Assembly (NCBI GenBank): GCA_041744215.1
Contig: JBGTLG010000039.1
Span: 64,001-128,000, forward strand
Source of the DNA: Fimbriimonadales bacterium
Lineage (GTDB): Bacteria; Armatimonadota; Fimbriimonadia; Fimbriimonadales; ATM1
Reading direction: 5' to 3'
DNA length: 64,000 nt
Within the stretch, counting starts at the first letter, position 1. Each line of letters opens with the position of its first letter. Below the pieces are notes generated by a model. The model was not told where the DNA came from. It did not search any database and saw only the letters and a list, made by a program, of their open reading frames with translations. Shown here in pieces: positions 3,232 to 46,934 of the stretch. The position numbers were made by a program, and so were the translations under genes.

Positions 3232-4968
3232 ATGGCAATTGAGGGTGCGGCTAGGGCAATCTGGACAACCAAGACGCGTGAGCTGGTGCTCGAGGCGGCC
3301 TTAGAGCGTGAACTGGGCATCCCCAAACTCCTCGCTGCGGTCCTCATCGCACGGGGGTTCACCGAGCCTGACGAGGCGTCGAAGTTTTTGTCCCCGAGCC
3401 TCGCCGATCTCCACGATCCGCTCCTGCTCCCAGATTGCGCCGAAGCCGTCCGCCAACTGCTCCAAGCGAAAGAGGCAAACGAGCGGATCTATGTCCACGG
3501 CGATTACGATGTCGATGGAGTTTCAAGTGCTGCCCTTTGGACCCGCAGCCTTCGTAGACTCGGATTTGATGTCGTGCCTCATGTGCCGCATCGCATACGT
3601 GAAGGTTACGGAATTCACCGTCTCGCAGTTGAGGAAGCTCGAGATGCGGGGTGCAAGCTGTTTTTGACGTGCGACTGTGGATCATCCGCGCATGTGACCG
3701 TTGCTATGGCGCGATCCTTCGGCATGCGCGTTGTGGTCACAGATCACCACGAAGTCGGCGACGTCGCCCCGGAGGCAGAAGCTCTCGTCAATCCACACCG
3801 AAAGGACAGCGCTTATCCATACAAGCACTTGGCTGGAGTTGGCGTAGCGTACAAAGTAGCGCAAGCAGTTGCGGAAGAGTGCGGCGCGTCGCGCCAACAG
3901 TTTGAGAGGGCATTCCTTGATTTGGTTGCGCTGGGAACAATCGCCGACGTAGTGCCGCTCACCGGCGAAAACCGAATCCTGGCGTGGCACGGACTTGAAC
4001 GGCTCTCACAAACAAAGAAACCCGGGCTCCGAGCGCTGATTTCTAAAGCAATCAAGAAGCCGGCCCGACCATTGAACTCACGGGATGTTGGGTGGGCTTT
4101 GGGCCCAAGACTGAATGCCGCAGGCCGGATCGACGACGCAGAACACTCGCTTCGCCTGCTGCTCACTGACGATTTCACAGAAGCAGAAGAGAAGGCCGAA
4201 CTCCTAGATCAGCACAATCGATCTCGGCGAGTCGAGCAGGATCGAATCCTCGCTTACGCCGAGGAGATCGTGCTGGAGCGGAGGCTTCACGAGGGCCCGC
4301 TCATCATCGTCGCTGCGCAAGGCTGGCACACCGGAGTAGTCGGAATAGTTGCTGGGAAGCTTGCCGAGCGCTACTACAGACCAAGTTTCGTCGCGAGCAT
4401 TGGTGCTGATGGGGTCGCCAAAGGATCGGCCCGCAGCATCCCAGGGTTCAACCTCCATGACCTGCTGACAGCTCATTCCGACCTATTCCTGTCTGGAGGG
4501 GGCCACGAACGCGCGGCGGGCTTCTCCATCGACGCTGGACGCCTTGAAGAGGCACAGGAGCGGCTGGAAGCGTACGCGGAAAACTTGCTGTCACCAGAAG
4601 ACCTGGTCCCGAAGATCGAGGCGGATTTGACGCTTCATGCCGATGACCTGACGTTCGCGGGCGTGGAGGCACTCAGCAAGTGTGAGCCGTTTGGCGAAGG
4701 TAACCCCGCGGTTCGGTTCGTCATCTCCGGGTCTCCGTTCTCGTTCGTCCAACCCACCTCAAAGCCGGAACATGTGAGGTTTGGTTTGGCGGGCACTGCA
4801 AATCTAACTGGGATCGGATTCTCGTTTGGAGAGCGCCTTGCTCGTTACAGTGCAGGGGACCAAGTCGACTTGCTCGTCGAGCCAGAAATCGACGAGTTCA
4901 ACGGGAGCCGCAAGGTCAATCTGCGACTCACCAACCTACAGTCCGACCGGGAATCTTCCGAGTGTTGA
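3232..4968 (+). CDS. recJ: Single-stranded-DNA exonuclease RecJ
   Basis: HGDYDVDG, TCDCG, TDHH, LGTIADVVPL, PRLNAAGR, GSARS, GGGH motifs. Confidence 0.96.
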   Translation: MAIEGAARAIWTTKTRELVLEAALERELGIPKLLAAVLIARGFTEPDEASKFLSPSLADLHDPLLLPDCAEAVRQLLQAKEANERIYVHGDYDVDGVSSAALWTRSLRRLGFDVVPHVPHRIREGYGIHRLAVEEARDAGCKLFLTCDCGSSAHVTVAMARSFGMRVVVTDHHEVGDVAPEAEALVNPHRKDSAYPYKHLAGVGVAYKVAQAVAEECGASRQQFERAFLDLVALGTIADVVPLTGENRILAWHGLERLSQTKKPGLRALISKAIKKPARPLNSRDVGWALGPRLNAAGRIDDAEHSLRLLLTDDFTEAEEKAELLDQHNRSRRVEQDRILAYAEEIVLERRLHEGPLIIVAAQGWHTGVVGIVAGKLAERYYRPSFVASIGADGVAKGSARSIPGFNLHDLLTAHSDLFLSGGGHERAAGFSIDAGRLEEAQERLEAYAENLLSPEDLVPKIEADLTLHADDLTFAGVEALSKCEPFGEGNPAVRFVISGSPFSFVQPTSKPEHVRFGLAGTANLTGIGFSFGERLARYSAGDQVDLLVEPEIDEFNGSRKVNLRLTNLQSDRESSEC

Positions 4969-6045
4969 TTCAGTTTGTGGAGCTTGCGCGATCGGTGTCC
5001 GTCTAAGCGCGCTTCGCTGCTGTAGCGATGACGGATCAGCCACGACCGCCACTTGTGCCGCCACGAGCGTCGCTCCCCTGCGAAGCTGGAGCTGAACAAT
5101 CTCGCCGACTTGCCGTTCGAACAAGAATGCGGCGAAGTCGAAGCTGTTCTCAATCAAGTCGCCTCCAGCTGTCAAAACGACATCCCCAGGCTTAACGCCC
5201 GCGACCGCAGAAGGCCCTCCATCGACGACCCTCGAGATGACTGTCTGCCCGCTCTTGTTTGTCTCGAAAAAGATGCCGAGATATGGGTGCTGCACGATTC
5301 CATTGTTGCTGACGAACCCGGTTACAACCCGATTGAGAATCTTGAGTCCGAGGGAGTAAGTCGTGGCCGCCGGCCGCGGCCCCTGGATTGTGTCGGCGGC
5401 TCGCTCTGCGAGTGCCTTCGTAGTCCCAGCGTCAATACCTGTTCTCGGGGCGATCCCGCCACCGCCCGCACCTTGGCCGGGGGTCACCAGAGATGCTAAC
5501 AACAATCCTGCGAGATTTCCGGCAGTGTCGAAAAACGGCGCGCCGCCGAGTGGAACCCCTCCCCGTTCAAGCCTCACTTCGATCAAAGGGACGTATCGGC
5601 GACTATAGGACATCACTCCAGTTACGCTGGCCTTAGTGATCTCGGCTCTCGCGGAGCCCGTGGGCAGTACAACGAGGACAGTACCGCGCTCGGTCGCTGT
5701 CGAAAGCTTCGCAGGCTTCACTGCTTCAGGTGCCTGTGCTAGCCGAACCAGCGCGATGTCGGTGACTGAGTCATAAGCTTCGACAGCTAACTTCGTGCGG
5801 AAACCACTCGAAAAAGTCGCGTCCATACCGAGGCGTGGGTTACCATCCGGGCCAAATGCGACGTCCCCAGTAGTAATCGCGATGCCCTTCGGCCCAACTA
5901 CCACTCCCTGACCAAGCGTGACCCCAGAAAGGCTGATGGTCAAGCTGGCGGACTCTGCCGACTCCGCCAGCTTGGAGCTAAGCGGGGACGTCAGGCCGTC
6001 TTGGCCAGACAGTGCAATGGCTAGGCTAATTACTGAGTACCACAT
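4936..6045 (-). CDS. Secreted HtrA/S1C-like trypsin-fold + PDZ protein, catalytic His and Ser apparently absent
   Basis: Signal peptide; GQGVVV, TDIALVRL, GGAPFFDTAGNLAG; PDZ HPYLGI...GPSAVAGVKPGDVV. Confidence 0.8.
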   Translation of the reverse strand: MWYSVISLAIALSGQDGLTSPLSSKLAESAESASLTISLSGVTLGQGVVVGPKGIAITTGDVAFGPDGNPRLGMDATFSSGFRTKLAVEAYDSVTDIALVRLAQAPEAVKPAKLSTATERGTVLVVLPTGSARAEITKASVTGVMSYSRRYVPLIEVRLERGGVPLGGAPFFDTAGNLAGLLLASLVTPGQGAGGGGIAPRTGIDAGTTKALAERAADTIQGPRPAATTYSLGLKILNRVVTGFVSNNGIVQHPYLGIFFETNKSGQTVISRVVDGGPSAVAGVKPGDVVLTAGGDLIENSFDFAAFLFERQVGEIVQLQLRRGATLVAAQVAVVADPSSLQQRSALRRTPIAQAPQTESTLGRFPVGL

Positions 6046-42651: not shown

Positions 42652-43956
42652 CTACCCCGCACTTTCCTCCATTTTGACCTTAGCCTTTGTTACCAGGTAC
42701 TCCAGAACCTTCTTTCTCATCGCCCCGAAGTGGAGTTCGTCCACCCGGCCGGCCCGGCGAATCGCTGTCCACGCATCTTCGGGGGACATTCGCTCATGGC
42801 GGGCGATCTCCGTAACCTGGTCCATGATGTCCGCCTTGTCAAGCTTCATTTCGAGCTTGGAAAAGATCTCTGTCATGAGTAGGGCGCGCTTCACCTCCAG
42901 GGTCGCCTCGGAGTGGATTTGCTGCCCCATTTGCTCGACCGTCATGTTGTTCTGCTGGGCGACATCCTCAAGGGTCATCGAGGCATCCACAGCCTCCTTT
43001 GCCAGGCCTTGAAGCCTCTGCTCTGCCACACCTTCGATCATCGTGTCTGGCGCGTGGATCGTCGAGGACTTTACCAGGGCGTCAAGAATCTGTTCATGGA
43101 CGAGGCTCTCCGCCCACCGCTCCTTTGCCCGCTCGATGCCCTCCCGAACGCGGGCGGTGAGTTCGTCAACGGATTCTGTGTTGAACTGTTGCGCGAACTC
43201 GTCAGTGAGGTCGGGGAGTTCTGGCGCGGACAAGGATCTGAGCCTGATCTGGCAACTGAGAAGCTTGCCCGACCAGTCCTTCTCCTGAAAATTCTCGGGG
43301 AACTGGAGGTCGGCGTGCTTGATCGCGTCGAGATCCATACCTGTGAGGATCTGGTCCAGCTGAGGGAAGGTCTGGCCGACGACCGCCATGAATGTGCGAC
43401 CATCGCCCTCCTCTTCGTCGACTTTGATATTGACGACCGCGAAGTCCCCTTCTCTTGCGCCTCGGGAATCAACGGCTTTTCGCGTCGCCTGGCCCTGGCG
43501 GAGTTCAGTTAGCTGGCGCTCTACCTCTTCGTCTGAGACCTCTGCGCTTGGCTTCGTAACCTCGATCCCTTCGATTGGGCCTAGCTCAACCTGCGGGGGT
43601 AGCGGTACCTTTGCCGTGAACTCGATTTCGCCTCCCTCACCCTCGAACTTCGTGATCTCGATCTTGGGTGCCGAGTGCGGCTGGAGGTTTTGTTCTTTGA
43701 CTGCCTCGGTGTAGGCGGTCTTCACAATCTCTTCGGCTGCGACTTCGTTCAGCCAGGCCGGGTCCACATACTGCTTCACGAGGTGAAGGGGAGCGGTGCC
43801 CGGGCGAAAGCCGGGAACCTTGATCTTCTTGGAAGCCTTCCTATAGGCTCGACCGAATCCGGCTCCGACCTGTGCCGATGAACATTGCACCTTGAGGAGA
43901 ATGGTGCACGGATTGAGGTCTTCGCGGACGATTTGCATGGAGGTTGAGGTCGACAT
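42652..43956 (-). CDS. tig: Trigger factor
   Basis: VPGFRPG ribosome-binding motif, FKBP-like centre; upstream of clpP-clpX. Confidence 0.93.
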   Translation of the reverse strand: MSTSTSMQIVREDLNPCTILLKVQCSSAQVGAGFGRAYRKASKKIKVPGFRPGTAPLHLVKQYVDPAWLNEVAAEEIVKTAYTEAVKEQNLQPHSAPKIEITKFEGEGGEIEFTAKVPLPPQVELGPIEGIEVTKPSAEVSDEEVERQLTELRQGQATRKAVDSRGAREGDFAVVNIKVDEEEGDGRTFMAVVGQTFPQLDQILTGMDLDAIKHADLQFPENFQEKDWSGKLLSCQIRLRSLSAPELPDLTDEFAQQFNTESVDELTARVREGIERAKERWAESLVHEQILDALVKSSTIHAPDTMIEGVAEQRLQGLAKEAVDASMTLEDVAQQNNMTVEQMGQQIHSEATLEVKRALLMTEIFSKLEMKLDKADIMDQVTEIARHERMSPEDAWTAIRRAGRVDELHFGAMRKKVLEYLVTKAKVKMEESAG

Positions 43957-44136
43957 GTGGAGAACGAGAAGGATACCTCTTGGGTACTTGGTGAGAGGGA
44001 GTGGAGCCTCGGGGGCGGCGTCCTCTTGCAGTTTGCCGTTACATGCCGAACTCAAACAAGGAGTCGGGCGAGGCTTCGGCGACTGATGGGGCTCAGGCCG
44101 AAGACTGTCAGACTAACAGCGTTCGATCAGCCAGAT

Positions 44137-44805
44137 TCACATCTTTTCAATCAGGATTGTGAAAACAGTGTCGTCTGCCCAGTCGTGGGAAAGGTGGGGA
44201 TCGAGCGCGAAGTCAACGCTCGCGCCAGCAATGACTGTCGTGATCACCTCGAACGTTAGGCCAATGGTATCTGTCCCCTCAATGAACGCGAACCAAACTT
44301 CGTTTGAACCGACAAACATTCTGGCCACAACACCGTTGCTGAGCGGACTTCCGTTTGCCTTTCGTAGAACTCCCGTTATCCTGACCAGACCAGTCGTCTC
44401 CGCGATCCACCTTCGGACAGCCCAGATTTCTTTCGGATGCGCGCTCCCTGACGTTGTGGTTCCGTTTGAATGAATGTTCGCGGCCTGCAGCAGAGCGTAA
44501 GACGAAGCTTCGTCAAACCACCAGGTACCGGCTGAGAACTGTGGCATGAGCTGAAAGTGTCCCGGGCTGAACGGTCCAGGATAAAAGCCATACTGCCAAT
44601 TGAGGTGACCTTGTACTGAAGAGAATTCCGCCACGGAGTTGGCGATCAGGGTTGGGCTACGCGAATTGCTCGGCGGGCAACCTGAGAGTGTGAGCCCCGC
44701 CAAGCACAACCCAAAGGGCGCCGCAATGCGACGCGTTATCGTCCTCCAATTCGCATGCCCAGCCCCATAACGGTCGGTCCCCTTCAAAGTGTGCGGCGAG
44801 TCCAA
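44137..44805 (-). CDS. Lipoprotein with an uncharacterised beta-rich domain, paralogous to the C-terminus of the upstream regulator
   Basis: GGAGGT RBS 9 nt before TTG; TRR and LSGC lipobox; FSSVQGHLNWQYG, AVRRW, SNGV, DFALDP. Confidence 0.8.
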   Translation of the reverse strand: MDSPHTLKGTDRYGAGHANWRTITRRIAAPFGLCLAGLTLSGCPPSNSRSPTLIANSVAEFSSVQGHLNWQYGFYPGPFSPGHFQLMPQFSAGTWWFDEASSYALLQAANIHSNGTTTSGSAHPKEIWAVRRWIAETTGLVRITGVLRKANGSPLSNGVVARMFVGSNEVWFAFIEGTDTIGLTFEVITTVIAGASVDFALDPHLSHDWADDTVFTILIEKM

Positions 44806-44832
44806 CTATCAAGCACCTCCGATGTTCCGCAT

Positions 44833-44862
44833 ACTGTAAAGCAAGCGGCAGGAGATTTACAA
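44833..44862 (-). promoter_or_regulatory. Putative sigma70 promoter for the lipoprotein gene
   Basis: TTGTAA-N18-TACAGT on minus strand. Confidence 0.45.
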
Positions 44863-44905
44863 GTCGTGTTTTTTCGTACGTAACCGAGTTGAAGGCGCCG
44901 TCTGC

Positions 44906-45784
44906 TCAGCGGAGAATGCGGAACCGAGTAATTGTAGCGTCGGCGCCGTCATCAGAGAAGAGCGGATCCAGCGCGAAGTCGATCGGATCGCCCTTCTTAA
45001 CTTCCAGGCGGAGGCTGTGGCTGATTCCAATTCCGTCGACGCCGCTTATCTTGTGACGCCAGATTTCTGCGCCTCGATGGTAGACGAGCAATCCAACACC
45101 GTTGCTGGACGCGCTGAAGTTGTCCTTGCGGAATTCAAGTTGGACGATAAGAGTACCGGATACCGGGGAGACCCACCTTCGAACAGGCCATTGTTCGACT
45201 TGCAAAGTGAGCCCGGTGGTCTTTCTCCCGTTCGGATGCGCACCATCCGCCCAGAGTCTCGTGTAGAAGGTTTCGCGGTGCACCATCCACCCACCTGGAC
45301 CGAAGTCAGACATCAGTCTGAATTCGCCGGGCAGATTGGGTTCGGAGAAGTAACCGTAGAACCAGTTGCGATAGCCCTGTTCTGATCCGAAGTCGGCGGC
45401 AGAATCTGCGAGAAGCTTGGGCTTGCTGTAGATTGCTCCGGCGAGTGCGAGCACGCCTATCGCCCCGGCGAGAGTGGTTGCAATCACCATAAACGTGCGG
45501 CGTGGTCGAGGAGTCGACTCGCGTGCTTTTCCGTTCACGAAGTCGGCATCGACAGTTGCGGATCCGACTGCTTCCCGGGCGTATCGCGCGATTGCAGCCG
45601 CCGAAGTTTCGACTCTCATCTTTGCGCGGATACGCGCCAGGTGTGATTCTACAGTCCGCGAAGAGACCCCGAGTTGCGTAGCAACGCCTTTCGCATGGCC
45701 GACCTCTTGATAGTGCTCAAGGACCTCGGCCTCCCTCTCGGTCAGCCCCCACGGATTGTTTGACTCGTTTGGCCGCCGTCCCAT
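44906..45784 (-). CDS. Transmembrane LuxR-family regulator (HTH, TM, exported domain)
   Basis: LTEREAEVL...VATQLGVSSRTVESHLARIRAKM; TM FMVIATTLAGAIGVLALAGAIY; upstream TATAAT and GAGG. Confidence 0.87.
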   Translation of the reverse strand: MGRRPNESNNPWGLTEREAEVLEHYQEVGHAKGVATQLGVSSRTVESHLARIRAKMRVETSAAAIARYAREAVGSATVDADFVNGKARESTPRPRRTFMVIATTLAGAIGVLALAGAIYSKPKLLADSAADFGSEQGYRNWFYGYFSEPNLPGEFRLMSDFGPGGWMVHRETFYTRLWADGAHPNGRKTTGLTLQVEQWPVRRWVSPVSGTLIVQLEFRKDNFSASSNGVGLLVYHRGAEIWRHKISGVDGIGISHSLRLEVKKGDPIDFALDPLFSDDGADATITRFRILR

Positions 45785-45897
45785 CTCTGTCCTCAAATCG
45801 TGCTGCGCTCAGCGTCGTTCGACTGGATTATACCGACGGATAGACTGAGGGACGAAGTTCGCTCCCGTAGGACGGCTGAAGAAGATGGGCCTCAACG

Positions 45898-45923
45898 AAA
45901 AGTGCCCCGGCAAGCCAGGGCAC
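45898..45923 (-). terminator. Intrinsic terminator after tRNA-Gly
   Basis: GTGCCCTGG-CTTG-CCGGGGCAC-TTTT on minus strand. Confidence 0.7.
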
Positions 45924-45932
45924 CTTCAAACA

Positions 45933-46007
45933 TGGAGCGGGAAACGAGATTCGAACTCGCGACCCTCTCGTTGGCAACGAGATGCTCTACCACTGAGCTA
46001 TTCCCGC
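45933..46007 (-). tRNA. tRNA-Gly(GCC)
   Basis: GCGGGAATAGCTCAGTGGTAGAGC...TTGCCAA...GTTCGAATC...CCCGCTCCA cloverleaf with CCA. Confidence 0.97.
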
Positions 46008-46064
46008 GGTCGAAGCACCATTAAGGCTTATGGGGCGCTTCAGAGTCAAGGGGGATCAACTGCG

Positions 46065-46934
46065 TCAAGTTTTCAGCGCCTCAGCGCCTCCAACGATTTC
46101 AAGGATTTCTTTCGTGATCGCAGCTTGGCGGCTCCGGTTTGCTTGCAGGGTGAGCGTGCTGATCATGTCGCCCGCGCTGTCGGTGGCGCTGGTCATCGCT
46201 GTCATGCGCGCGCCGTGTTCGCTCGCCGTCGATTCAAGAAGACCTTGCTGCGTGACAGTGAGCGCGTATCTCGGGAGGAGCTGCCCGAGCAATTCGGTGG
46301 CACCAGGCTCGAATGAGTACGTCTTCGTCGAGGCTTTGCTTGGTCCAGCATCTTCGCGTTGCGGCGGCTGGATAGGCAAAAGCTGAACTGCTTCGGGCAC
46401 TTGCCTAATCGCTGAGAAGAATTTGCTATAGATCAGGTAGATCGCATCGAGTGCTTCGCTCTGGAACATCTCCTCCGCGTGTGAGAAGATCTCTTGCGCG
46501 TGGCGGTGTGTTGGGCCTGATGTCGGGATCGAGAAATGTTCTCCCATGTTGTAGCCACGCTTGCTAAAGAACTGCTCTGCCTTTTTACCGACGCTGACGA
46601 CCGTCGCATCACCGGGTGTGTTTTTGATGAACTCAACAGCGCGGCGCAGTAGGTTGCTATTGAACGAACCGCAGAGTCCACGGTCGGCTGTGATCACGAT
46701 GACGCCGTACTTTTCGATCGGGCGTCTTGCTAAGAGCGGATGCTCTGGCATATCGCCTGCCTCTGCGAGGCTCGCGATCAATTCGCGCATTTTGTCGGAG
46801 TAGGGTCGCGCTTCGAGTACGCGGTCTTGCGCGCGTCTGAGCCTCGCAGCAGCGACGAGCTTCATTGCGCGCGTTATCTGGCGAATGCTCTTCGCGCTTT
46901 TGATACGTTGTTGGAGGTTCTTTATACTCGGCAT
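46065..46934 (-). CDS. atpG: ATP synthase gamma subunit
   Basis: ITRAMKLVAA, DRGLCGSFN, SEHGARMTAM, RQAAITKEILEI. Confidence 0.97.
   Translation of the reverse strand: MPSIKNLQQRIKSAKSIRQITRAMKLVAAARLRRAQDRVLEARPYSDKMRELIASLAEAGDMPEHPLLARRPIEKYGVIVITADRGLCGSFNSNLLRRAVEFIKNTPGDATVVSVGKKAEQFFSKRGYNMGEHFSIPTSGPTHRHAQEIFSHAEEMFQSEALDAIYLIYSKFFSAIRQVPEAVQLLPIQPPQREDAGPSKASTKTYSFEPGATELLGQLLPRYALTVTQQGLLESTASEHGARMTAMTSATDSAGDMISTLTLQANRSRQAAITKEILEIVGGAEALKT

Follow-up and report, generated by a model that had tools for sequence, protein, structure and literature searches.

Here we describe two adjacent genes of a Fimbriimonadales bacterium (Armatimonadota), which lie in a stretch of 64,000 nucleotides from contig JBGTLG010000039.1 of assembly GCA_041744215.1 (positions 64,001 to 128,000 of the forward strand; the window in what follows) and which encode a transmembrane LuxR-type regulator, P0153, and a lipoprotein, P0002. 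Both products carry the same putative exported domain, here named X. The explanation that we favour, with moderate confidence, is that P0153 combines a ToxR-like topology with a LuxR-type DNA-binding head, that its X ectodomain faces the periplasm of a diderm armatimonadote and would place DNA binding under the control of a ligand, and that the product of the next gene is a lipoprotein paralogous to this ectodomain. The parts of the two genes are:

44906..45784, minus strand: regulator gene, encoding the 292-aa P0153 (list of open reading frames, ORFs; stop codon at 44906-44908)
45590..45745, minus strand: LuxR/GerE helix-turn-helix (HTH) of the regulator, residues 14-65, predicted cytoplasmic (Pfam GerE)
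45497..45589, minus strand: poorly conserved linker between HTH and membrane, residues ~66-96 (predicted local distance difference test score, pLDDT, 54-65; identity to the ortholog)
45428..45496, minus strand: single transmembrane (TM) helix, rich in small residues, residues 97-119 (hydropathy, charge bias, AlphaFold2 helix 97-118)
44909..45427, minus strand: predicted extracytoplasmic domain X of the regulator, a beta-sandwich like those of carbohydrate-binding modules (CBMs), residues 120-292, 173 aa (homology, AlphaFold2)
44137..44805, minus strand: lipoprotein gene, encoding the 222-aa P0002 from a TTG start (ORF list)
44677..44805, minus strand: signal peptide and lipobox of the lipoprotein, residues 1-43, with L40-S41-G42-C43 (read from the translation)
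44140..44658, minus strand: domain X of the lipoprotein, residues 50-222 (AlphaFold2 pLDDT ~97, all-beta)

A preliminary description, made from the letters alone, had given both ORFs, their domain order and the motif alignments between them, and all of these were recovered here on the minus strand. The regulator starts at an ATG at 45784 with GAGG ahead of it, and its ortholog P0024 shares both its length and its N-terminus, MGRRP. GerE is the sole Pfam match above threshold in P0153 (E-value 5.5e-10; 39.2 bits against a cut-off of 23.5), at coordinates that were reproduced by a GerE search across the assembly (2.68 Mb in 42 contigs, 93.2% complete), and the AlphaFold2 model of this region has helices at residues 16-28, 31-38 and 42-78 (pLDDT 84-93). 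The OmpR-type family Trans_reg_C scores 12.7 bits (E 0.14), below its cut-off of 26.2, while NCBIfam returns HTH-level matches only, far under all family cut-offs. Neither a receiver (Response_reg) nor an autoinducer-binding (Autoind_bind) domain was matched in P0153 at E <= 1 in Pfam or NCBIfam, in agreement with the initial view of a LuxR HTH that stands without either; the usual N-terminal regulatory module of the LuxR family is absent, and the HTH is itself N-terminal. Two further proteins of this genome (G000 C5:82809-82970 and C25:36784-36942) begin with a LuxR HTH that is followed by ~110-155 aa of non-HTH sequence with no TM helix, as in a soluble protein; LuxR proteins that begin with the HTH are thus found more than once in this organism.

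The membrane topology of P0153 was derived from hydropathy and charge bias and from homologs whose signal peptides are clear, among them the X relatives L003 and L004. The protein has a single hydrophobic stretch (residues 100-118, Kyte-Doolittle 19-mer 2.18), with five Lys or Arg in the 15 residues before it and two after, a bias that fits an N-in/C-out orientation. Its motif GAIG..LA.AGAI is kept in the ortholog, with invariant columns from G107 to Y119, and the ectodomain beyond it is modelled as all-beta over residues 121-292 with pLDDT 93-98. These features support the predicted arrangement, also read in the preliminary description, of a single-pass protein with a cytoplasmic LuxR HTH and a C-terminal domain in the periplasm. 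With a DNA-binding domain and at least one TM region in the same chain, P0153 falls among the transmembrane transcription regulators (TTRs). Export by twin-arginine translocation (Tat) was considered for both proteins: the RR-TM stretch of the regulator gives a weak match to the Tat-signal family UCR_Fe-S_N (E 0.006, below cut-off) and the lipoprotein contains TRR. TatC was not found in this 93.2%-complete genome, and both proteins were therefore treated as Sec substrates.

The lipoprotein gene follows the regulator gene on the same strand after 100 nt. Its TTG at 44805 has GGAGG 10 nt upstream and an in-frame TAG directly before it; because of this TAG and of homology that begins at residue ~45, an ATG start is not possible for P0002. 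The public gene call at the locus is a 136-aa product from an internal ATG (P0003), and with the true start at TTG 44805 this annotation leaves signal peptide, lipobox and the initial third of X out of view. The N-terminus of P0002 consists of a positive n-region (R21/R25/R26), a hydrophobic stretch of 14 residues and the lipobox LSGC, in keeping with the lipobox motif [LVI][ASTVI][GAS]C. The genome encodes Lgt (E 6.8e-54), LspA (E 1.6e-32) and an Omp85/BamA homolog, so that a periplasm and lipoprotein processing are to be expected. The sorting signal PEP-CTERM (PF07589) was found by Pfam in neither protein of the pair, though the genome encodes an exosortase.

Aligned by BLASTP, regulator and lipoprotein share 74 identities over 194 positions (38%, E 3e-38). 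The earlier hand count of about 65 identities in 170 residues without gaps comes close to this alignment, which has five gap positions: three residues in the signal/TM part and two towards the C-terminus. Searched in six frames, the entire assembly contains exactly two copies of X, both in this pair. That the second gene encodes a lipoprotein made of the same domain has thus held up, and the lipoprotein is an old paralog of the regulator's ectodomain.

The AlphaFold2 model of P0002, which is confident across the domain, was aligned to structure representatives by VIA-align, and the top match was CBM51 (7jrm_A, Z 10.6, root-mean-square deviation 2.6 A, 119 aa). Other CBM51 structures scored nearly as high (2vmi_A, Z 10.3; 2ygl_A and 2vng_A, Z ~10; 10.2 being a further CBM51 value), as did the next match, the gingipain K1 (Kgp) adhesin domain (Z 10.2; 4itc_A similar to 7jrm_A in its values). 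Lower matches (Z 8-9.5) included CBM36, CBM4 and CBM61 (Z 8.7-9.5) together with MAM and Eph ligand-binding domains. Foldseek returned Stig cyclases, CBM35, CBM6 and CBM51 at E ~1e-4 to 3e-4, with weak TM-scores of 0.3-0.5. The predicted fold of X is a CBM-like beta-jelly roll or beta-sandwich, as the suggestion of a beta-rich and possibly lectin-like domain had anticipated. X resembles CBM51, CBM35, CBM6, CBM36, CBM4 and the gingipain cleaved-adhesin domains in this predicted fold, and it resembles CBMs also in occurring as an accessory or tandem module of secreted multidomain proteins; it differs from them in having only 5-12% sequence identity and conserved motifs of its own, and by sequence it belongs to no described CBM family.

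No match to X was found at E <= 1 in Pfam or NCBIfam, a profile built from 50 X sequences hit nothing significant among PDB sequences (best E 0.19), and the protein Atlas holds X only in unnamed 'hypothetical' clusters. A phmmer search of 1.84 billion representatives of 50%-identity clusters returned 1128 X proteins at E <= 1e-3, of which 563 remain at <= 1e-10 and 29 at <= 1e-30. Short members consist of a signal peptide, X and a sorting tail, which in alignment A2 is PEP-CTERM in 14/50 sequences, dockerin in 2/50 and VPDSG-CTERM in 2/50. Long members have between one and five copies of X in giant adhesin- or CAZyme-like (carbohydrate-active enzyme-like) proteins, together with RTX, cadherin, Calx-beta, FG-GAP, legume-lectin, TSP3, LTD, CotH, beta-helix and subtilase domains and with the tails of type IX secretion (Por_Secre_tail). 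In 15 host ORFs that were Pfam-scanned from 27 metagenome loci of the Joint Genome Institute (JGI), X stands beside Glyco_hydro_cc/GH53-like cores and, among other partners, beside beta-helix, TIG, CBM_4_9 and CHB_HEX_C. The CBM-like fold fits this company, though sugar binding is not thereby proven.

The best 150 phmmer matches were Pfam-scanned except for P0003, which is the window's own fragment, and P0147, which was too long. Three of these 148 proteins have a cytoplasmic signalling head: P0024 has GerE, and P0041 and P0052 are Ser/Thr kinases with a single TM helix, followed in P0041 by two tandem X copies and in P0052 by one X that starts a few residues after the helix, as it does in P0153. 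With one genome scanned per species, 368 X stretches were confirmed, the best 80 of which belong to Cyanobacteria, Phycisphaerales and other Planctomycetota, Myxococcota, Armatimonadota, Verrucomicrobiota and others. Conserved motifs of the family are ADS..FS..QG..W.YGY, HPNG, W.VRRW, GNG and DF..DP, and both X copies of the window retain most of the 37 positions that are conserved in at least 80% of the family. Judged by these relatives, X is a large and widespread family of exported domains, previously undescribed.

The ortholog P0024 (292 aa, GerE E 1.1e-10), which is encoded on a 3316-bp contig, is 71% identical to P0153 over its full length. Identity between the two is 79% in the HTH, 27% in the linker (residues 71-96), 57% in the TM helix and 76% in X, and the outer half of the helix, GAIG.LA.AGAIYSKP, is invariant. 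Conservation of the HTH, the outer TM half and X around a linker that has drifted is a pattern of selection on each functional part, and this comparison of two apparent orthologs shows purifying selection on the HTH and the ectodomain.

A distinct regulator from the same phylum (L134:1584-2990, minus strand, on G042:C15) has the same layout with another sensor: its 469 aa contain GerE at residues 13-66, one TM helix and a beta-propeller-like ectodomain. Its HTH is 52% identical to that of P0153. Downstream of it lies an unannotated exported protein of 476 aa and no paralogous neighbour. From the likeness of the two regulators, HTH-TM chassis may form a small family in which the sensor can be exchanged.

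Our structural models and comparisons suggest a mechanism in which the X ectodomain would bind a ligand outside the cytoplasm, a glycan or surface polymer being the most probable, and in which binding would alter the dimerisation, oligomeric state or stability of the regulator through its small-residue-rich TM helix. The LuxR HTH family binds DNA as a dimer, and the altered dimerisation or stability would change the occupancy of DNA by the HTH. From its place at the membrane the HTH would then regulate nearby genes, with that of the lipoprotein as the most evident candidate; the lipoprotein itself probably handles the same ligand and is not a proven partner of the regulator. A sensor role for the domain, as first proposed, is plausible because X also follows the single TM helix of two Ser/Thr kinases. 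Support by analogy for the mechanism as a whole comes from these kinases, from the chassis of L134 and from characterised membrane LuxR activators.

In the window the genes run, on the minus strand, in the order atpH-atpA-atpG, tRNA-Gly(GCC), regulator gene, lipoprotein gene, tig (identified by its Trigger_N/C domains), clpP and clpX. Between and upstream of the two genes of the pair lie:

44806..44905, minus strand: intergenic spacer of 100 nt, with GGAGG at 44816-44820 ahead of the TTG
45785..45932, minus strand: upstream region of the regulator gene, with a hairpin and TATAAT read by eye
45933..46007, minus strand: tRNA-Gly(GCC) (ARAGORN; Rfam tRNA, 73 bits), marking the upstream end of the variable slot in which the gene pair lies

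An Rfam scan of 43500-46500 gave no match other than this tRNA. Upstream of the regulator gene, a terminator-like hairpin of the tRNA at ~45898-45924 (a listed inverted repeat) and TATAAT at 45827-45832 were seen by eye, neither of which was reported by the consensus scan. A 12-nt inverted repeat, 11/12 complementary, has two arms 77 nt apart: 44913-44924 falls within the final codons of the regulator gene, and 44824-44835 shortly precedes the Shine-Dalgarno sequence of the lipoprotein gene. The repeat may form an RNA hairpin or have arisen by chance. The ORF list shows no stop or frameshift in either gene, and among the adjoining genes it shows neither a protease nor polysaccharide-utilisation genes. 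No integrase or att-like flanking repeat was found around the pair. Public DNA runs that contain the stretch are labelled as hot-springs metagenome and all come from one study, and were therefore counted as one source; the search for such runs listed none of RNA. Four DNA runs show the identical sequence only, covered thinly and free of variants and joints.

Several observations weigh against the ligand-controlled regulator. Queried with P0153, a word-based search of 5.8 billion clusters gave ten proteins, of which two, P0153 itself and P0024, have GerE, so that the fusion is seen in only two sequences of that collection. A search of 400 further genomes from the phylum gave no protein that joins HTH and X (partial HTH or X matches occur in 43 of them, and none spans both), and neither the 27 loci from JGI metagenomes nor 79 genome loci yielded one. 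Among 111 ORFs with X from 108 loci there is likewise none, the N-terminal extensions of 18 of them being, when read by eye, signal peptides and low-complexity linkers, and a scan of genome contigs with the alignment of the two orthologs gave 46 pattern matches of which none was confirmed. X itself is present in two of 40 genomes of relatives (G008 and G039) and in neither of the two same-genus genomes, both of which lack the pair (2/2). One of these, G001, has a 447-aa AAA_25 gene in the gap between tRNA-Gly and tig instead (L121, G001:C16:108300-112500), and in G008, of the same family, the matched pieces of tig end ~85 nt from the tRNA-Gly match; the pair therefore sits in a variable, tRNA-adjacent slot, and with its absence from the same-genus genomes it must be counted as accessory. 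As a side observation, the AAA_25 protein of G001 is a RepA/DnaB-like P-loop protein. On the side of control, a consensus promoter scan of the spacer found no site, and the two upstream regions have no operator-like motif in common apart from one 8-mer, about the level of chance. On the side of the ligand, the Z values of 8-10 form a continuum of beta-sandwich matches in which a CBM-like fold is no proof of sugar binding, and the Stig cyclases, which have the same fold, are enzymes. The designation of the pair as a candidate signalling module, made at the outset, was too strong in view of only two fusions found, a variable slot and no lipoprotein ortholog found.

An unlikely alternative is that the two genes form a co-component cassette, in which the lipoprotein heterodimerises with the ectodomain of the regulator and serves it, much as ToxS or VtrC would, as a co-receptor, a decoy or a feedback inhibitor. 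The genome's only two X copies are adjacent, on the same strand and 100 nt apart, both keep the conserved positions of the family, and co-component systems in which a TTR has a periplasmic partner encoded beside it are established (PMC9214523; here and below, statements on published systems refer to the portions of the sources available to us). The trees are compatible with such a pairing: free quick trees do not settle the position of P0002, and a tree constrained to hold P0002, P0153 and P0024 as one clade gains 30.4 log-likelihood units (+30.4 lnL) over the free search, and the approximately unbiased test does not reject it (p-AU 0.88). The X domains of P0002 and P0153 may thus be each other's closest relatives, and the constrained tree is compatible with an old local duplication, with a caveat for long branches. 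A tandem duplication, however, leaves adjacent paralogs whether or not they interact. While the regulator has an ortholog in the 5.8-billion-cluster collection, none was found there for the lipoprotein at near or shorter lengths, the best other match being 46% identical, and L134, the nearest relative in chassis, lacks a paralogous neighbour. Known partners are lipocalin-like and do not duplicate the sensor, and overlap with the regulator gene is frequent (PMC9214523); here a 100-nt spacer with its own Shine-Dalgarno sequence intervenes. Besides the window pair, only one of 108 X loci has two adjacent X genes. That locus, L083, from a Planctomycetota metagenome-assembled genome, has two stand-alone X genes at 3806-4594 and 5177-5896 on the plus strand, and its two copies are very divergent from each other; the double X entries of L027 and L108 seem each to be one gene broken into pieces. 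For the suggested role of the lipoprotein as decoy, co-receptor or feedback inhibitor, nothing beyond its adjacency and paralogy was found. A wider form of the proposal, in which the X ectodomain is controlled by hetero-association with the paralogous lipoprotein as a decoy or co-receptor for the same glycan or polymer, and in which X is an unrecognised sensor module recruited independently by LuxR regulators and Ser/Thr kinases, would make the pair a new co-component cassette and is unlikely.

Two other explanations dispense with the transmission of a signal across the membrane by an intact regulator or with signalling altogether. Single-pass tethered regulators can be proteolytically processed, and P0153 might be held inactive at the membrane until its HTH is freed by site-1/site-2 cleavage, in the manner of anti-sigma factors or CadC. 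Its long, unconserved and probably disordered linker (27% identity, pLDDT 54-65) would allow this, and a Gly/Ala-rich TM helix suits intramembrane cleavage as well as dimerisation. Against it, no protease gene lies beside the pair, the sequence bears no cleavage-site mark and the membrane LuxR regulators characterised to date are described as acting at full length (bioRxiv 10.64898/2026.01.10.698779, PMC9734109), so that we consider release by proteolysis very unlikely. We give still less credence to an evolutionary accident, in which a tandem X duplicate became fused to an HTH-TM stub in a mobile, tRNA-adjacent island and is tolerated with no coupling to any signal. It would account for the variable tRNA-Gly slot, where a sister species has a gene of mobile-element type (AAA_25), for a fusion confined to two sequences and for the absence of the pair from both same-genus genomes; yet the 71% identical ortholog has kept the length, start, HTH, outer TM half and ectodomain while its linker drifted to 27%, the genes are free of stops and frameshifts, and neither an integrase nor an att-like repeat flanks the pair. 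The ligand-controlled, membrane-bound regulator remains the explanation that we prefer.

The significance of these observations lies chiefly in domain X, a family that has no Pfam, NCBIfam or PDB entry and yet combines a confidently predicted CBM-like fold with sharp conserved motifs. It is found behind a single TM helix three separate times, once with a LuxR HTH and twice with Ser/Thr kinases, and these fusions offer a compact natural example of extracytoplasmic binding modules becoming sensors. The fusion with the HTH is confined to one narrow, uncultured lineage from hot springs, and its practical value is modest.

Regulators with the general build of P0153 have been surveyed. In a census of TTRs, GerE is the third commonest DNA-binding domain, with 4943 of 50,302 proteins (9.8%), ahead of Trans_reg_C with 3459, and its supplement includes proteins of ~250 aa that begin with GerE and have a single TM region, for example 'GerE,2CSK_N' and 'GerE,DUF4019' (Demey 2023, PMC10269533). 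The class of regulator is therefore already described. P0153 shares with these TTRs the union of a DNA-binding domain and a TM region in one protein, and differs in an ectodomain that has no Pfam family and in a paralogous lipoprotein neighbour, which the available portions of that study do not describe (PMC10269533); the word 'lipoprotein' has no occurrence in its main text. As its ectodomain has no Pfam match, P0153 would appear in such a Pfam-based census as 'GerE' alone.

The pair invites comparison with ToxR/ToxS, VtrA/VtrC and TcpP/TcpH (Kinch 2022, PMC9214523), with which it shares an N-terminal cytoplasmic HTH, one TM helix, a C-terminal periplasmic domain and an exported protein encoded beside the regulator. 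The HTH of those systems is an OmpR-type winged helix and that of P0153 is of the LuxR/GerE type; their partner is a lipocalin-like barrel, whereas here the neighbour resembles a CBM and is paralogous to the sensor; and overlap between regulator and partner genes is frequent there (PMC9214523), while the genes of the pair are 100 nt apart. If the lipoprotein were to modulate the regulator, the pair would follow a logic of sensor copy as partner that is not seen in systems of the ToxR/ToxS type. BguR and SusR of Bacteroidota come closer in their DNA-binding domain, having, as predicted for P0153, a single TM helix, a periplasmic beta-rich sensor and a GerE HTH with no phosphorelay domains (HisKA, HATPase or receiver), and a glycan is the suspected class of ligand for BguR as it is for P0153 (bioRxiv 10.64898/2026.01.10.698779). 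BguR is built in the reverse order, with signal peptide, sensor, TM helix and C-terminal HTH in 940 aa, and SusR is named as the only case comparable to it (bioRxiv 10.64898/2026.01.10.698779). The sensor of BguR is a tandem beta-propeller with Y_Y_Y, while P0153 has its HTH first and then a 173-aa CBM-like sandwich; Pfam finds no Y_Y_Y match in P0153, and its modelled ectodomain is a sandwich and not a propeller.

A third arrangement is known from DadR, CadR and HcdR of Eggerthella lenta, 12-TM LuxR-type proteins that activate adjacent genes (Dong 2022, PMC9734109). Like P0153 they are membrane-embedded members of the LuxR family, and they answer an external small molecule; they differ in their 10-12 N-terminal TM helices, C-terminal HTH and lack of a globular ectodomain (PMC9734109). 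Given the 4943 catalogued GerE TTRs (PMC10269533) and the characterisation of DadR/CadR/HcdR and BguR, the initial impression that the architecture as such was undescribed went too far. Open-access papers and bioRxiv yielded no description of the X family or of a paralogous lipoprotein neighbour. The single-pass transmembrane GerE regulators are known, and what is new in this pair is the sensor family X together with the paralogous lipoprotein encoded beside it.

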